From a virus, in IMG/VR virus record IMGVR_UViG_3300028569_000019, positions 32,780-96,779 of that record: DNA of 64,000 nucleotides; one strand, written 5' to 3'. Positions 46,094 through 58,599 of this stretch are shown piece by piece (within the stretch, counting starts at the first letter, position 1; each line of letters opens with the position of its first letter). The translations under genes were made by a program, and so were the position numbers. The notes under the pieces were generated by a model. It did not search any database and had not been told where the DNA came from. It saw nothing but the letters and a program-made list of their open reading frames with translations.

Positions 46094-46531
46094 ATGAAAT
46101 TAAAACATTTACTAGAAAACTCTACTGAAGTAGCTTATAGCTCTCTTACCAAAGAAGAAAAATCAAAAATGGTTGGGGCTATTAAATCTTACAACGAATA
46201 TCGCAAAGGATTAAAAGCCGATTGCGTATATGAAACCGCACAAAAAATTATGGAGGCTGTTAATTTAGCAGAACGATATGCCATCAAAGAATGTGGCGAT
46301 TGGATGCAAGCCAAAATGGTTGAACGTGATATGAAGGAAATCAAGAGAGATGCTTCTAAAATGTACGAAGAAGCTCAAAAGATGAAAGAAATTGAAAAAC
46401 AACTTGAAATGTTATACGAACAAGTTGGTATGAGATTGGAACGTTATTTTGAAATTGCGGACTCAATGAATGAAGCTCCACAATCACAAACAAGTAACGT
46501 TACTATCAATCCATCGGCACAGAATCAATAA
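46094..46531 (+). CDS. Hypothetical helical protein with shared N-terminal leader
   Basis: Starts MKLKHLLE; ATATTTATA 4 nt upstream. Confidence 0.7.
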   Translation: MKLKHLLENSTEVAYSSLTKEEKSKMVGAIKSYNEYRKGLKADCVYETAQKIMEAVNLAERYAIKECGDWMQAKMVERDMKEIKRDASKMYEEAQKMKEIEKQLEMLYEQVGMRLERYFEIADSMNEAPQSQTSNVTINPSAQNQ

Positions 46532-50732: not shown

Positions 50733-50761
50733 TTGACATTACCATAGAACTCGTATATACT
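50733..50761 (+). promoter_or_regulatory. Sigma70-type promoter TTGACA-17-TATACT
   Basis: Near-consensus; ends 8 nt before the ATG of the GIY-YIG gene. Confidence 0.8.
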
Positions 50762-50769
50762 TATATTAT

Positions 50770-51507
50770 ATGAAGAGTGGCATCTATAAAATAACAAATC
50801 TTAAGAATGGTAAGTTTTATATCGGTTCATCTAAGGATATAGAGTTTAGATGGAGTGAACATAAAAAACATTTAAATGGCAATTATCATATTAATAAAAA
50901 ATTACAAAATGCTTGGAGTTTTTATGGTAAAGAACATTTTGAATTTACAATAATCGAAATTATAAATGAATGTGATTTATTAGTTAAAGAACAGTTTTAT
51001 TTAAATATGTTTAAACCACATATGAAAGAAATTGGTTACAATATAAATCCCAGTGCATATGGCGGGGACACAATTACACATAATCCCAATAAAGAACAAA
51101 TTATTAAAAATATGACTGTTGCAAATAATGTCGGTCATATGCACGGTAAAAAACATAGTGATGAGGCTAAAGAAAGGCAACGTGAACGTGCTGTAGGGCG
51201 TTATACTTTGGAGTGGTTTGTTGACAAGTATGGCGTTGAGAGTGGTACACTTAAGTACAAAGAGAGAAATGAGAAGTTGGCCAATCGTAATATTAATTAC
51301 AGTTATGACAATGGATTAAAAGGCAAAAAGCGTGGTGCTATGAGTGATGATATGAAACGTAAGATTAGTGAACAAAAGAGAAATTTTGCGCTTAGAAAGA
51401 ATGAATTTATTGACGATTTAAAGAGTGGTAGTTTTAGCAACAACGAATTAAGTGAGAAGTATGGAGTATCATTAACCACAATTAAATTACATAAAAGAAA
51501 ATATTAA
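50770..51507 (+). CDS. GIY-YIG homing endonuclease
   Basis: SGIYKITN..FYIGSS, GYNI, NUMOD3 HGKKHSDEAK and a C-terminal HTH. Confidence 0.92.
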   Translation: MKSGIYKITNLKNGKFYIGSSKDIEFRWSEHKKHLNGNYHINKKLQNAWSFYGKEHFEFTIIEIINECDLLVKEQFYLNMFKPHMKEIGYNINPSAYGGDTITHNPNKEQIIKNMTVANNVGHMHGKKHSDEAKERQRERAVGRYTLEWFVDKYGVESGTLKYKERNEKLANRNINYSYDNGLKGKKRGAMSDDMKRKISEQKRNFALRKNEFIDDLKSGSFSNNELSEKYGVSLTTIKLHKRKY

Positions 51508-52281
51508 TTATTCGAAAAATTCGTTGGTAGATGTTACAACGATTTCTTGCACTTCTTCTTTGAACGAAGTATCTTTGGGGTAAGGTAGAATTTTATGTTT
51601 TAGAGATTTAACCAGTTTTTTATTTTCTATCTTGTTGCTAATAAACTTGACGTAACGATGTTTACCACTTTCACGTTTACGCCAAAATGTTCTACCAATA
51701 CGTTCTTTTAATTTATCTACACTGTGTGTTTTCCATCTAGCATATACACTTCTACTATGTATCCACTCATATTGATTCGGACCAATTAAACTAACACTAT
51801 AGTTAGGCATTATTGCTATATCCACATAGTTGTCTCCTTGATATAGAAATCCAGTTGCTTGATATATTGTTCCAGCGTGTCCAGCTTCACTATCTGCATA
51901 ACTAAGAATACATTTAATGTGTGGATATTCTCTGTTTAATAGTCTAAAACTTTCAGCTATACAATAACTCTCTATATTTTTACCATAACCATCTGCAATC
52001 CACAACCGTGTTAATTCCAACACATTATTGTTAGTAAGTAGACAAGATATGCTGGTACTTGAATTTCTACCCACGGCATTTCCATATACTAATACACCTA
52101 TCAGGCGTTCGTTAAATCCCCCAAAGAAAGTACTTTCGATATACTCTTTGTAATAAACTCCATAAGCTACAGTACAAAGTGACCACTTGTGAGTATAGTG
52201 GTTCTTTTCAATAAGAGTTTTTGCAACATTCTTATTGATGCTTTTGAGGTAAATTAATGAGGGGTTAAAATACTCCGACAT
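51508..52281 (-). CDS. Mom-like (GNAT-fold) DNA base modification protein
   Basis: IEKNHY, LELTRLW, ESYCIA and ILSYADSEAGHAGTIYQATGFLYQG motifs. Confidence 0.8.
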   Translation of the reverse strand: MSEYFNPSLIYLKSINKNVAKTLIEKNHYTHKWSLCTVAYGVYYKEYIESTFFGGFNERLIGVLVYGNAVGRNSSTSISCLLTNNNVLELTRLWIADGYGKNIESYCIAESFRLLNREYPHIKCILSYADSEAGHAGTIYQATGFLYQGDNYVDIAIMPNYSVSLIGPNQYEWIHSRSVYARWKTHSVDKLKERIGRTFWRKRESGKHRYVKFISNKIENKKLVKSLKHKILPYPKDTSFKEEVQEIVVTSTNEFFE

Positions 52282-52318: not shown

Positions 52319-52531
52319 TTATATTATGTAAAAAAGACCCTTGGAATTATAAACCACTGTTTTTATTTTAGTTGGGTTAATTTGATTTATACCAAGTCTA
52401 TCAATTACCTGATATGGATCTGGATGATTATTTATAGGCGCAGCCATTACTCTATCTTTTATCTTATATACATCCAAATCTGTGTTAACAATACTTGGAT
52501 GATATTGTCTTACCAAAGGCATTACTCTCAT
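52319..52531 (-). CDS. Small hypothetical protein
   Basis: ATGA overlap with the cyclase stop codon. Confidence 0.55.
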   Translation of the reverse strand: MRVMPLVRQYHPSIVNTDLDVYKIKDRVMAAPINNHPDPYQVIDRLGINQINPTKIKTVVYNSKGLFYII

Positions 52532-54306
52532 ACTGGTTTATTTATTGTTGGTTCTGCTTTTGTTACTCTGCTTGATGGAAATGCTTTGTTACCAAAGTCA
52601 CTACCGTGTAAACTATACAAGTGCATCACCACACCGTGTTTTACAACCACATCGCCTAAATCATTCACTAATACATACGCGGGTCTATCATATTTTAACA
52701 TTACAGCTGAACTAACCAATAAATGATTACTTTCACCCGCATCCATTACTCTTTGAGCATAATTGATGCCGTCGCCACTTATATTTAAATTGCCATTGAT
52801 GTCTTCCATTGGGATTACAGAACCACAATGTACACCCATTCTCATTTGTAAGTCTGGTCTATCTTTTACTGCTTTAGCTATAGCAACCGCACAATTCATT
52901 GCGTCTTCTGAGTATGTAAAGAAACCCATTACCATACCATCACCAGTAGGTAATATGATTAACTTTTCAAGAGCATTAGCTGTCTTATATTGCATTGTAC
53001 CTTTAATCAAAGTACCCAAATCTTTACAAGCTTTCTTTTGTTCATCGGTAGTCTTTTTACTATAAGCTACAATATCCATAAAGAATATATAACCTTCTTG
53101 TTCTGTATCCAATTGTAATCTACCTGATTTCACTTCCACATCAACCTTTTCAACCTTCTTGACAATAGATTTTACAGGCTTTGGAACTTCAACCTTCTTT
53201 TTTTCTTCTTTCTTTTCTACAACCGGCATATTCTTTAACTTCAAGAAGTCCTTCCAGTTAATCTTCTTTACAGGAGCATCTTTCTTTTTTGGTTCTTTTG
53301 CTGCTTGTTCTTCTTCTATCTTTTTAATAGCAGCTTCTTCTCTTTCACGTTTTTCAATAAACAAAGCTATTTGTTTTTTGACTTCATCTGTAATATAAAT
53401 GGTCACATCTTTACCGCCACCACCTGTATCGTGTTTCTTCTTTCTTTGAGCACCTTTGGATTGTAAATAACTTTGCATTTCTACATTTCCAGTCTTGAAT
53501 GCGATATCTAACGGAGCAATTTCACCCTTGAAATCCGCACCATTAACGTTTGCTCCCAAATGTACCAAAAACTCCACCATATCAACATCGTTAGCGTTAA
53601 CGGCATAATGTAATGGCATCCAACCGTTCTTTTCATCTCTACCGTTGATTCTACCATCTTTATCAAAGAATCCTTGTACACCCTCAAAATCACCAGTTTC
53701 TGCGCAGAAATGAATACTTATACCCCCGGCGGATTTAGCACCGTAATTGTTTAGTATTTTAACAATTTCGCCTCTATTTGTATTGGACAATACATCAATT
53801 GGATTGTTTTTACCCAAGAAATCTTTCTTGTTGATATCTGCACCTTTAATAATTAGATATTCAACCAAGTGTTTTTGTCCGTAATTAACGGCATAATGTA
53901 GTGCAGTCCAACCTTTACCCGCATCAACTTCGTTGATATCACATCCTTTATCTAACATTTCTTCAATAGAAACGATGTCACCATTCTTTGCAGCCAAGTG
54001 GAAACTACTACCACTGCTGTATTTAGCACCTCTTTGTTGTAGTACTTCTACAATAGGTTTAAAACCCTTTTGTTCGGCTACATCTAATGCGGTATTTTTG
54101 CTTGTCCAATCTTTTACATTTGGATCAGCTCCGTGATTTAATAATAATCGAACTATTTCTATTTGATTTTCTTCTACAGCGACAACCAGAGGCGGATTAC
54201 CTGTGTCGTCGTCTCTTTGATTAACGTCCACTTTTTCTTTTTCTATACAATTGTAAACGTTATCGTATAGACCCCTTCTAATATGGGTAAAAATATTGAT
54301 GGCCAT
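52528..54306 (-). CDS. Ankyrin-repeat / class III nucleotidyl cyclase fusion
   Basis: About 9 ANK repeats (GWTALHYAV, GWMPLHYAV); FMDIVAYS, TGDG, RMGVHCG and GINYAQRVM cyclase motifs. Confidence 0.88.
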   Translation of the reverse strand: MAINIFTHIRRGLYDNVYNCIEKEKVDVNQRDDDTGNPPLVVAVEENQIEIVRLLLNHGADPNVKDWTSKNTALDVAEQKGFKPIVEVLQQRGAKYSSGSSFHLAAKNGDIVSIEEMLDKGCDINEVDAGKGWTALHYAVNYGQKHLVEYLIIKGADINKKDFLGKNNPIDVLSNTNRGEIVKILNNYGAKSAGGISIHFCAETGDFEGVQGFFDKDGRINGRDEKNGWMPLHYAVNANDVDMVEFLVHLGANVNGADFKGEIAPLDIAFKTGNVEMQSYLQSKGAQRKKKHDTGGGGKDVTIYITDEVKKQIALFIEKREREEAAIKKIEEEQAAKEPKKKDAPVKKINWKDFLKLKNMPVVEKKEEKKKVEVPKPVKSIVKKVEKVDVEVKSGRLQLDTEQEGYIFFMDIVAYSKKTTDEQKKACKDLGTLIKGTMQYKTANALEKLIILPTGDGMVMGFFTYSEDAMNCAVAIAKAVKDRPDLQMRMGVHCGSVIPMEDINGNLNISGDGINYAQRVMDAGESNHLLVSSAVMLKYDRPAYVLVNDLGDVVVKHGVVMHLYSLHGSDFGNKAFPSSRVTKAEPTINKPV

Positions 54307-54323: not shown

Positions 54324-54701
54324 TTAGTCTTTTTTAAAACGACTTAAATCCAAATTAGGTAGTGGTTTTTCTATATTTAGACTTGCCAATCTTTCATTTT
54401 GAACCACTAATTTGTTGCCACTAACAACCTTACCATCGACAATATCATAGATAAAGAATACAGTTTTGGTAAGTCCTACACGAATAATTCTGCCTGGTTT
54501 ACCATCGACGTATACAACGTCATCTTCTTTATAATCGGAGCCAATAAACATAAACAGCGCAGCTGCAAGTTTTTCTATGCTCGATTTAAACATTAAAATT
54601 ATCAAGCCTGCTAAGAACATCCAGACATATTTGCCTGTCATATCTTGTGCGGTTGATTCCAATACCTGTTGAGATATTACGTGTGCTGTATTTGTGTCCA
54701 T
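54324..54701 (-). CDS. Minimal MscS-like membrane protein
   Basis: TM helix, then SSIEKLAAALF..YKEDDVVYVDGKPGRIIRVGLTKT..LVVQN (MscS TM3 plus beta domain pattern). Confidence 0.65.
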   Translation of the reverse strand: MDTNTAHVISQQVLESTAQDMTGKYVWMFLAGLIILMFKSSIEKLAAALFMFIGSDYKEDDVVYVDGKPGRIIRVGLTKTVFFIYDIVDGKVVSGNKLVVQNERLASLNIEKPLPNLDLSRFKKD

Positions 54702-54776: not shown

Positions 54777-55742
54777 TTACTTAATCCACTTTTGTTCTTT
54801 TAGTATATCATCGATCAATTCTTTTTCAGAACTGTCCATTTCCTTATCAAATCTCTTTAATACTTCGGTTAATGGATATACTCTATCAGGAGACTCTTTT
54901 TGCTTTTCTTTTAATTCTTGGATTACATCGACTATTTTGACAAGAGGAGATTTAAATTCATTAACTTTGTCTTTTGAAGCAAAGTTAGACATTTCAAATG
55001 CATGTGGAGTTAATGCTTTTACCAAACTTAATAGTCCGGATCCAATCATATTGAATATACTAAATGCTGCACCGGCGGCTGGATGTACTGTTGCTAATAT
55101 TCTAAGTATAACAAATACTATAACGAATACGATAATAGCGGTCAATGCACTGATAAAGAACTTCTTTAAACCCCAAAATACCGCATTTAATCCAAACATA
55201 CCACTCATAGCATCAAGAGTAGCCTTACTTTGATCAGCTTCTTTTGCAATTTCTTTTGCTTTATCAGTCATTTGCCACAATTCATCGTCATACTTTTCTT
55301 TCAAAGCAGACTTTTCTTTTTGTAGTTTGTTGATGATTTCGTCACGTTGTGACAATAACTGATCACCTTTCTTTCTTTCTTCAGCAACTTGACTATTCAA
55401 TAGATCAACGGTAGCTTTAATACGTTTGATTTCATCTATATGAGGTGACCCAACTATAGAAATGACACGTTCATTTAGTGCTTTAGCAGTGTCAACTTGT
55501 ACAGGCGCATTTGTTACTTGACTCAATGAGTGTTGAATACCTATGGATAAAGATGAAGTTTGTACCCGTTTACCTTTTTCTACTTTTTCCAATTCTACCA
55601 TTGTATTATCTACTTTGGCTTCCTGTTTAGCAACCGCATCTTGTGACGTTGTAACTTGCTTTGCTGGTTTAACTTCGGAGGAAATGCAACCAGTTAGTAT
55701 TAGAATCACGATTGTATAATACAGTTGTTTTTTATAGTTCAT
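54777..55742 (-). CDS. Lipoprotein with coiled coil and C-proximal TM segment(s)
   Basis: Lipobox ILTG-C, long heptad region and hydrophobic FFISALTAIIVFVIVFVILRIL. Confidence 0.7.
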   Translation of the reverse strand: MNYKKQLYYTIVILILTGCISSEVKPAKQVTTSQDAVAKQEAKVDNTMVELEKVEKGKRVQTSSLSIGIQHSLSQVTNAPVQVDTAKALNERVISIVGSPHIDEIKRIKATVDLLNSQVAEERKKGDQLLSQRDEIINKLQKEKSALKEKYDDELWQMTDKAKEIAKEADQSKATLDAMSGMFGLNAVFWGLKKFFISALTAIIVFVIVFVILRILATVHPAAGAAFSIFNMIGSGLLSLVKALTPHAFEMSNFASKDKVNEFKSPLVKIVDVIQELKEKQKESPDRVYPLTEVLKRFDKEMDSSEKELIDDILKEQKWIK

Positions 55743-55787
55743 ATAATATAAATATTACTTTTTATAATTAAACCAATATTTATCAAT

Positions 55788-57831: not shown

Positions 57832-58599
57832 ATGAGTGCTAATGTCAAGAAATATTTGTATCTATTGGTTAAAACCCATTCTGTAACTGGAATGAGATAT
57901 CTTTGTAAGAGAGTTACTACTAGTGATTCCAAAGCTATTTCATACTTAGGATCCGGAACAAGATGGAATAACCATTTAAAAGTCCACGGAAAACATATAA
58001 ATACAGAAATACTTGTTAAATATGATTTAGATAGAATTGAAGAATTTAGTAAGTTGTGTATAGATTATAGTAACAAATTTGATATAGTTAAAAGTGGCGA
58101 TTGGTCAAATTTAATCATTGAAACGGGTAAACCCGGAACTAAAATAGGTATTTATTGTGGTGATAAAGGAACTTTTTTTGGAAAGAAACACACCGAAGAA
58201 ACAAAAGAAAAAATAAGCATTGCGAATCGTGGAGATAATAATGTAATGCGTAGAAATAAGATTGCTTTAGAAAAGATGATTTTGACAAAAAATAAACCGG
58301 AAAATAAAGAAAAACAAAGATTGATTGCAATTGAAGTAAATAGTAGACCCGAAGTAAAAGAAAAGATTAGACAGTCAAAATTAGGATTAAATAATCCATC
58401 TGCAGATAAAAATATTTATACATTAAAAAATAAATTTACTGGAGATACAATCAATGGAACAAGATTTGATCTAATTGAACAAATGAAAAAATTAAATAGT
58501 AACAATCCATCTATTAATATATTAACAAATGGAGACATTGGTTATTTCTTAAAAAAAGACAGAGTTGTAAAAAACGTGAAAGGGTGGACTAAGATATGA
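57832..58599 (+). CDS. Seg-like (degenerate GIY-YIG) homing endonuclease
   Basis: YLYLLVKTHSVTGMRYLCK..YLGSG; NUMOD3 FFGKKHTEETKEKIS. Confidence 0.8.
   Translation: MSANVKKYLYLLVKTHSVTGMRYLCKRVTTSDSKAISYLGSGTRWNNHLKVHGKHINTEILVKYDLDRIEEFSKLCIDYSNKFDIVKSGDWSNLIIETGKPGTKIGIYCGDKGTFFGKKHTEETKEKISIANRGDNNVMRRNKIALEKMILTKNKPENKEKQRLIAIEVNSRPEVKEKIRQSKLGLNNPSADKNIYTLKNKFTGDTINGTRFDLIEQMKKLNSNNPSINILTNGDIGYFLKKDRVVKNVKGWTKI

Follow-up and report, generated by a model that had tools for sequence, protein, structure and literature searches.

Within the class III nucleotidyl cyclases, a pair of purine-selecting residues defines substrate classes, not membership of the family itself. The solved structures that best match the protein described here, by sequence and by profile, are the IIIc-type soluble adenylyl cyclases 3mr7 (Ruegeria pomeroyi), Rv1900c/LipJ (M. 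tuberculosis, 1ybt/1ybu) and Ma1120 (M. avium, 4wp9). That protein, which we call the ankyrin-cyclase, is encoded on the minus strand by an open reading frame (ORF) of 592 codons and a TGA stop at 52528..54306 of a 64,000-nt stretch of IMG/VR virus record IMGVR_UViG_3300028569_000019; this whole stretch is the window, its numbering is used throughout, and residue numbers are those of the 592-residue protein. The ankyrin-cyclase shares with the solved enzymes the fold, the two metal-binding Asp residues, the Arg and, as predicted, the head-to-tail dimer, but it is only 22–26% identical to them, ankyrin repeats take the place of their alpha/beta hydrolase partner domain, and it falls in a separate, much larger subfamily with invariant residues of its own. 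At the purine-selecting positions 3mr7 and Ma1120 carry Lys and Asp, whereas the ankyrin-cyclase has Leu and Asn; Rv1900c also departs from the canonical Lys at the first position, having Asn four residues before GD.

Two further groups of described proteins are relevant. PycC and the cGMP-making Pucsar enzymes have in common with the ankyrin-cyclase the class III fold, a two-metal mechanism, a dimeric active site and a base pocket altered from Lys/Asp. Ankyrin repeats are also carried by other phages (phage WO, ANKp of the sponge 'Ankyphages', and Leptospira and Acinetobacter jumbo phages), but none of the phage ankyrins in GenBank has a cyclase domain: tblastn with the cyclase part against 50,697 GenBank phage records gave no match at E ≤ 1e-3, and with the whole protein only the ankyrin parts matched (Wolbachia WO, Leptospira and Acinetobacter phages, 24.7–32.1% identity). 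ANKp is secreted and acts on eukaryotic cells, whereas the ankyrin-cyclase shows no signal peptide. A megablast search of GenBank phages with 10 kb around the gene gave no match. We found no report of a phage-encoded nucleotide cyclase in the literature searched, and nothing relevant on nucleotide cyclases or ankyrin is said in an overview of jumbo phages (PMC7824862); a cyclase-like family described elsewhere (PMC4886424) is different from that of the ankyrin-cyclase.

We put the probability at somewhat above one half, about 0.55, that the ankyrin-cyclase is an active class III enzyme making an ordinary purine cyclic nucleoside monophosphate (cNMP), with cyclic AMP (cAMP) as the most likely product. 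The evidence for this comes from its catalytic residues, their conservation in a large bacterial subfamily, and the predicted fold and dimer.

Domain architecture, fold and catalytic residues

Residues 1–290 form three ankyrin modules of three repeats each, at residues 1–97 (54016..54306), 98–192 (53731..54015) and 193–290 (53437..53730), all on the minus strand, as are all features of the protein given below. Residues from about 20 to 290 match Pfam Ank and Ank_2 to Ank_5 (E 1e-23 to 1e-37), and ankyrins and DARPins in the PDB match down to E 3e-58. Aligned with one another, the modules score 102–169 against shuffle maxima of 40–50, modules 2 and 3 being identical at 35 of 93 residues, and nine ankyrin helix pairs are present in a full-length AlphaFold2 model with a mean pLDDT (predicted local distance difference test) of 79. 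The modules are followed by a linker of 104 residues (291–394; 53125..53436) with 27 Lys and 15 Glu, 48% of it charged. A single long helix at residues 307–337 (53296–53388) is modeled in the linker with low confidence elsewhere, and the remainder is probably disordered. The C-terminal part, residues 395–592 (52531..53124), is a class III cyclase homology domain with a folded core at about 403–567.

The cyclase domain is recognized by PF00211 (Guanylate_cyc) with 22.9 bits for the whole protein and 26.0 bits for the C-terminal domain alone, against a cut-off of 21.9. With a profile built from the domain and 21 short relatives, the solved cyclases 3mr7 (E 3.6e-13), Rv1900c (1ybt, E 1.4e-10) and Ma1120 (about 1e-9) were retrieved from the PDB. 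Other collections were less informative: the NCBIfam search gave only a LipJ match far below threshold, the PHROGs search only ankyrin families with no assigned function, and PADLOC with the full protein only ankyrin-containing candidate families. The AlphaFold2 model of the cyclase domain has a pLDDT of 94, and all 35 top Foldseek matches listed are adenylyl or guanylyl cyclase catalytic domains (probability 1.0, template modelling scores 0.6–0.8, about 0.7 in general), showing at the level of the model that the C-terminal 190 or so residues have the class III cyclase fold.

We also predicted a homodimer. The interaction prediction score from aligned errors (ipSAE) was 0.84, compared with 0.01 for the highest-scoring of three controls; in calibration, 20 of 30 proteins with structures solved as pairs of one chain reached this mark, as did 1 of 23 solved as single chains. 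The three runs concur on at least 94% of contacts, and the pLDDT of the partner is at least 90. The interface contains residues 414–417, 451–455, 496–515 (including the 502–515 hairpin) and 556–557, taking in residues next to D411, the LPTG loop and K556/H557. The prediction is of a symmetric head-to-tail homodimer with the catalytic residues at the interface, which is the active-site geometry of class III enzymes.

Catalytic residues were assigned from HMMER alignments to 3mr7 and 1ybt, with their codons checked against the window. D411 (53074..53076), in the motif FFMDIV, and D456 (52939..52941) align with the two metal-binding Asp residues of both structures. The transition-state pair is formed by N515 and R519, four residues apart in the motif NYAQR (52750..52764), and K556 and H557 (52636..52641), both invariant, lie in the motif VKHG, in which K556 would by its position be the phosphate-binding Lys of canonical cyclases. 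Every residue needed for two-metal catalysis is thus present in the domain as aligned. The place of the adenine-selecting Lys or guanine-selecting Glu is taken by L452 (52951..52953), in the motif LPTGDG, which aligns with the Lys of 3mr7 four residues before the second GD Asp. At the second purine-selecting position, Asp or Thr in adenylyl and Cys or Ser in guanylyl cyclases, is N508 (52783..52785), aligned with the Asp of 3mr7 and Rv1900c seven residues before N515. The canonical pair, be it Lys with Asp/Thr for ATP or Glu with Cys/Ser for GTP, is therefore absent, and Leu452/Asn508 stands in its stead.

These residues do not vary among close relatives. D411, D456, L452, N508, N515 and R519, and K556 as well, are invariant in 120 of 120 close homologs, so neither the Leu/Asn pair nor the catalytic residues can be put down to chance. 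The protein belongs to the class III cyclase superfamily, having all of its defining features that could be tested other than the purine pair. The sequence-only reading of this DNA had described three ankyrin modules of roughly 95 residues, a Lys/Glu linker and a class III cyclase with both metal-binding Asp residues, the Asn–Arg pair, and Leu and Asn at the purine-selecting positions; in architecture and residues its description of the protein was correct throughout.

The Leu/Asn subfamily and the likely product

We searched 1.84 billion cluster representatives exhaustively with the domain using HMMER and obtained 4671 matches at E ≤ 1e-3, of which 489 were at E ≤ 1e-30. We then tallied residues in the best 149 representatives beyond the phage family, which are 37–49% identical to the domain across its whole length. 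In these bacterial proteins D411, D456, R519 and K556 are invariant and N515 is present in 148, and a further set of conserved residues is specific to the subfamily (Y415, S416, Q423, C472, D502, N504, Q518, M521, D522, H528 and H557). That the complete catalytic set is kept across sequences so diverged speaks for genuine catalysis. The Leu/Asn pair had been taken by the sequence-only reading as the mark of a special phage enzyme, and this did not hold: Leu is found at 452 in 130 of the 149 representatives and Asn at 508 in 144, in a subfamily of bacterial proteins linked mostly to tetratricopeptide repeats (TPR) or kinase domains. Going by these counts, the pair is a signature of a large bacterial cyclase subfamily and not a phage oddity. 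Its conservation indicates that the pocket is functionally constrained, without indicating which base it holds.

Of 73 proteins of the subfamily, 70 contain Pfam Guanylate_cyc (best E 4e-30), in combination with TPR repeats in roughly one third of cases and with Ser/Thr kinase domains in 13. At least 548 loci of the subfamily were found in a scan of one genome per prokaryote species. Soil Verrucomicrobiota (Chthoniobacterales, Udaeobacter) and Acidobacteriota account for most of the best 80, and a single genome often has several; the nearest ESM Atlas clusters are in agreement. The phage proteins resemble these bacterial ones in their catalytic domains (40–49% identity), in the LPTGDG and N-x-x-G-x-G-I-N-x-A-Q-R motifs, and in the logic of joining a cyclase to an alpha-solenoid protein-binding domain. 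They differ in being carried by phages, in having ankyrin repeats N-terminal to the cyclase instead of TPR or kinase domains, and in forming a clade on a long, well-supported branch with its own changes near the active-site loops (e.g. G/A512 to D, R499 to P, E475 to A and C523 to A). The maximum-likelihood tree places all ankyrin-cyclases and one short stand-alone form in a single clade, with 99% support in the Shimodaira–Hasegawa-like approximate likelihood ratio test (SH-aLRT) and a branch of about 1, apart from 146 bacterial domains. This is consistent with a single capture followed by spread among related phages, although the tree is midpoint-rooted and does not give the direction of transfer.

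The sequence-only reading had raised the possibility of a Pycsar-type pyrimidine cyclase, and we compared the domain with PycC. With the cyclase domain the PycC profile of PADLOC reaches no more than 12.4 bits (E 0.016), and it does not match the full-length protein. The base-recognition residues of PycC are F100, R142 and Q144 in EaPycC and Y50, D94 and R97 in BcPycC, and EaPycC has Arg and Gln at four and two residues before the second metal-binding Asp (PMC11224242); the ankyrin-cyclase has Leu452 and Thr454 at four and two residues before D456, in a comparison by motif position, not superposition. With this low score, with CTP/UTP-recognition residues that are not matched, and with no cNMP-binding effector either nearby or in related complete phages (see below), we judge that the ankyrin-cyclase is not Pycsar-like, and that part of the earlier reading falls away.

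Pycsar-related cyclases have diversified to cGMP too, with few pocket residues setting specificity (bioRxiv 10.64898/2026.08.12.744502), and XC_0250 is a bacterial class III enzyme with non-canonical residues that is a strict guanylyl cyclase (PMC3770947). Both examples make the product unpredictable from the two classical positions, and no product can be read from the Leu452/Asn508 pocket. The most serious alternative, which we consider unlikely and to which none of the tests made here points, is that the enzyme is as described but its product is unusual, with Leu452/Asn508 and the invariant polar residues D502, N504, Q518 and H557 selecting a base other than adenine or guanine, or giving another cyclic product, such that the phage would inject a non-canonical signal such as cCMP or cUMP. 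The pair is neither of the Lys/Asp nor of the Glu/Cys type and is nearly invariant, as expected under functional constraint, and class III enzymes with altered pockets can make cCMP, cUMP and cGMP (PMC11224242; bioRxiv 10.64898/2026.08.12.744502) or, as with XC_0250, be strictly specific for GTP. These points are offset by the poor PycC score and unmirrored PycC specificity residues, and by the consideration that a Pycsar signal would trigger host suicide effectors, with no obvious gain for a lytic phage. Among atypical mycobacterial enzymes with substituted pairs, Rv1900c (Asn/Asp) and Rv0386 (Gln/Asn) reportedly make chiefly cAMP.

A bolder version of this proposal, and one we hold to be rather less probable still, is that the Leu/Asn-type cyclases constitute a substrate class of their own, whose product would be either a cyclic nucleotide that is neither cAMP nor cGMP or some different cyclic compound. 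Such a class would embrace hundreds of bacterial TPR- or kinase-linked clusters as well as the phage clade. A widespread lineage of aquatic jumbo-type phages would have acquired one of these enzymes and with it a private second messenger to impose on the host, with the ankyrins acting as an infection-state switch and the conserved membrane proteins encoded beside the cyclase as the output.

The domain could alternatively be silent or re-purposed, a nucleotide-binding regulatory module or scaffold held by the ankyrins on a host or phage protein and producing no second messenger. Other class III proteins are known to contain pseudo-cyclase domains, and the loss of the purine-holding residues and the marginal Pfam score would both be in keeping with such a role. 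We regard it as improbable, however, since the two Asp, the Asn, the Arg and the Lys are invariant over hundreds of diverged sequences, which is hard to explain without catalysis, and since the predicted dimer places the catalytic residues at its interface.

Phage carriage and the surrounding gene block

The source record is a 96.8-kb IMG/VR virus record rated 29% complete. Its structural genes are T4-like, and its T4-type major capsid protein is about 50% identical to those of the myophages Microcystis phage Mel-JY01 and Flavobacterium phage immuto. Taken with the viral loci of its relatives, this upholds the earlier view of the ankyrin-cyclase fusion as a phage gene, and specifically it is a gene of a large uncultured T4-like phage of lake water. 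Full-length homologs of 54–98% identity are found in metagenomes and in 76 IMG/VR loci; more than 120 full-length relatives in metagenomes are 54–95% identical over the cyclase domain, and the IMG/VR loci, at least 76 in number and from lake-water viral contigs, include a 296-kb and a 175-kb record, each with a completeness rating of 100%. Near-identical DNA is present in lake-water runs of about nine independent studies. In a second group, which occupies another 47 viral loci and includes a 170-kb record with a completeness rating of 100%, the cyclase part is about 44–48% identical and there are two ankyrin modules, not three; we call this group marine because one cluster member is from the Tara Oceans collection. 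It is module 1 that is missing, both from the marine clade and from intermediate clades.

We estimated pairwise ratios of nonsynonymous to synonymous substitution rates (dN/dS) with eight relatives at dS of up to about 1, and obtained 0.03–0.08 for the ankyrin part, 0.05–0.12 for the linker and 0.02–0.08 for the cyclase. All three parts are under strong purifying selection. The low ratio of the ankyrin part, with a surface that is conserved and not diversifying, fits a fixed partner, and its slow evolution argues against a sensor engaged in an arms race.

The cyclase is the third gene of a co-directional minus-strand block that lies within a plus-strand structural region. The first gene of the block (54777..55742, minus strand) encodes a 321-residue protein that, by eye, has a hydrophobic N-terminus followed by a Cys in the manner of a lipoprotein, a coiled-coil-like middle and hydrophobic C-terminal segments; no family could be assigned to it. 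Next is a 125-residue membrane protein (54324..54701, minus strand), upstream of the cyclase and co-directional, with a weak resemblance to the MscS beta-domain that remains below threshold (Pfam MS_channel_2nd, E 0.023, 15.2 bits, cut-off 20.2). Downstream is a 70-residue ORF (52319..52531, minus strand), the ATG of which overlaps the cyclase stop codon (ATGA). It stands beside the cyclase in most freshwater loci with 63–100% identity but has no family match; it is translationally coupled and a candidate partner or regulator. A Mom-family DNA-modification gene (51508–52281, minus strand; Pfam Mom E 3e-44) follows the block on the same strand, as it does in most close relatives, although not in a group of 72–75% identity. 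In that group the order of the block (321-residue protein, 125-residue protein, cyclase, 70-residue ORF) is kept even though the flanking genes differ, the capsid and Mom genes no longer adjoining the block. Within the 47 marine loci, a homolog of the 125-residue protein (33–40% identity) lies within a few kilobases of the ankyrin-cyclase in about half; it is found on either strand and at varying distance, and so is not an operon partner there, and its nearness may reflect synteny, not function. The position of the block in the structural region, with two membrane proteins and a coupled ORF, raises the speculative possibility that its role is tied to the envelope or to late events such as lysis timing or exclusion.

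We asked what could read a cyclic-nucleotide signal in these phages. No cyclic-nucleotide-binding domain was found in the neighbors of the cyclase. PF00027, which our search detected in 11 of 14 control genomes, is missing both from the source record and from four related virus records, of which three are rated 100% complete. As the phages have no recognized cNMP-binding domain, any receptor is most likely host-encoded or of a type that is not recognized. This bears on the idea that the block is a phage-borne Pycsar-like or anti-Pycsar module, in which the cyclase and a membrane effector would work together against competing phages as an abortive or exclusion system, or as a decoy jamming the cNMP-based defence of the host. 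The conserved block does include two membrane proteins, the smaller of which recurs near about half of the marine ankyrin-cyclases, and small transmembrane proteins are among the Pycsar effectors (bioRxiv 10.64898/2026.08.12.744502). We nevertheless consider such a module very improbable. Unlike Pycsar systems, these phages have no cNMP-binding TIR or transmembrane effector nearby or in the genome, the cyclase lies outside the PycC family by profile, and the strand and distance of the membrane gene vary in marine loci; moreover Pycsar is host-encoded, whereas the ankyrin-cyclase is phage-encoded and under slow, uniform purifying selection unlike that of an arms race. Least credible of all is an effector directed at eukaryotes. 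Set free at lysis or borne by the host, and targeted by its ankyrin repeats, the cyclase would raise cNMP in protist grazers (cf. the ExoY and CyaA toxins and the secreted ankyrins of sponge-symbiont phages). Bacterial and phage proteins that interact with eukaryotes do typically have ankyrin repeats (phage WO, 'Ankyphage' ANKp). By eye, however, the N-terminus shows neither a signal peptide nor a secretion motif; the phage is T4-like, of lytic type and from open lake water, the cyclase is from a purely bacterial signalling subfamily, and there is no similarity to class II toxin cyclases.

Several other features of the region were observed. The motif ATATTTATA, at 55743–55755 in the case of the block, precedes the ATG of the block's first gene by 13–15 nt, as it does that of several plus-strand structural genes (gene starts at 46094, 57832, 60771 and 62804). 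It has the look of a common start or promoter element, which suggests that the block is co-regulated with the structural genes. The T4-type late promoter TATAAATA showed no enrichment at gene starts on the coding strand. An 18-nt inverted match of 94% relates the start region of a GIY-YIG gene (50757–50774) to that of the block (55738–55755); we considered a recombination or inversion site flanking the block and rejected it, as this sole notable inverted match is the shared gene-start motif and not a boundary of the block. One metagenome DNA contig joins 51506 to 55776 on opposite strands (depth 4.8, with 36 nt on the shorter side), and a relative may, on this weak indication, carry the entire minus-strand block inverted.

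Two putatively mobile genes are nearby, a GIY-YIG homing endonuclease at 50770–51507 (plus strand), directly after the capsid gene, and a NUMOD3-containing gene at 57832–58599 (plus strand), preceding the next structural gene; each occurs in only some of the related loci, as mobile endonucleases would. Of the 52 gene starts in the window, only 9 have even a loose Shine-Dalgarno-like word, the leaders are A/T-rich, and a T immediately precedes the start codon in 40. This resembles Bacteroidota-type or cyanobacterial initiation and fits the capsid relatives in Flavobacterium and Microcystis phages.

A proposed role and its implications

Several points weigh against an active cyclase that makes cAMP. 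Both purine-holding residues are replaced, so activity on ATP is an assumption, and no characterized member of the Leu/Asn subfamily surfaced in our searches. The PF00211 match is just over threshold and covers only profile positions 93–182, the C-terminal half of the model. The dimer prediction may simply echo solved cyclase dimers, and is a likeness and not a proof. The link of the block to membrane proteins could be mere synteny. Lastly, no RNA dataset is among the runs listed as carrying the stretch; one metatranscriptome (X24) matched it by 18–38-nt fragments only, and a run labelled 'RNA?' (X20) resembles DNA of 85–95% relatives.

We nonetheless favor an active class III enzyme with an ordinary purine product, and propose the following. 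The T4-like lake-water phage would make a cytoplasmic homodimeric class III nucleotidyl cyclase that, during infection, turns a nucleoside triphosphate into a 3',5'-cyclic nucleoside monophosphate, cAMP being the likeliest by prior. The nine ankyrin repeats, whose place is occupied by TPR repeats or kinase domains in the bacterial relatives, would bind a conserved protein partner that switches or localizes the enzyme, and the flexible charged linker with its one long helix would couple them to the cyclase. The signal would then be read by a host receptor, which we propose because the phage genomes encode no cNMP-binding domain.

The cyclase superfamily itself is already known; what is new is its carriage by phages, the ankyrin fusion and the conserved gene block. 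The phage tools known to act against cyclic-nucleotide signalling destroy or sequester the signal, as do the Acb1 and Apyc1 nucleases and the sponge proteins, and a phage that makes a cyclic mononucleotide itself would, if this is true, be following the opposite strategy. Given how abundant and how conserved the ankyrin-cyclase is among lake and marine viral contigs, an effect on host physiology could matter ecologically. Beyond phages, it draws attention to a large subfamily of bacterial cyclases in which the Leu/Asn pocket is fixed.

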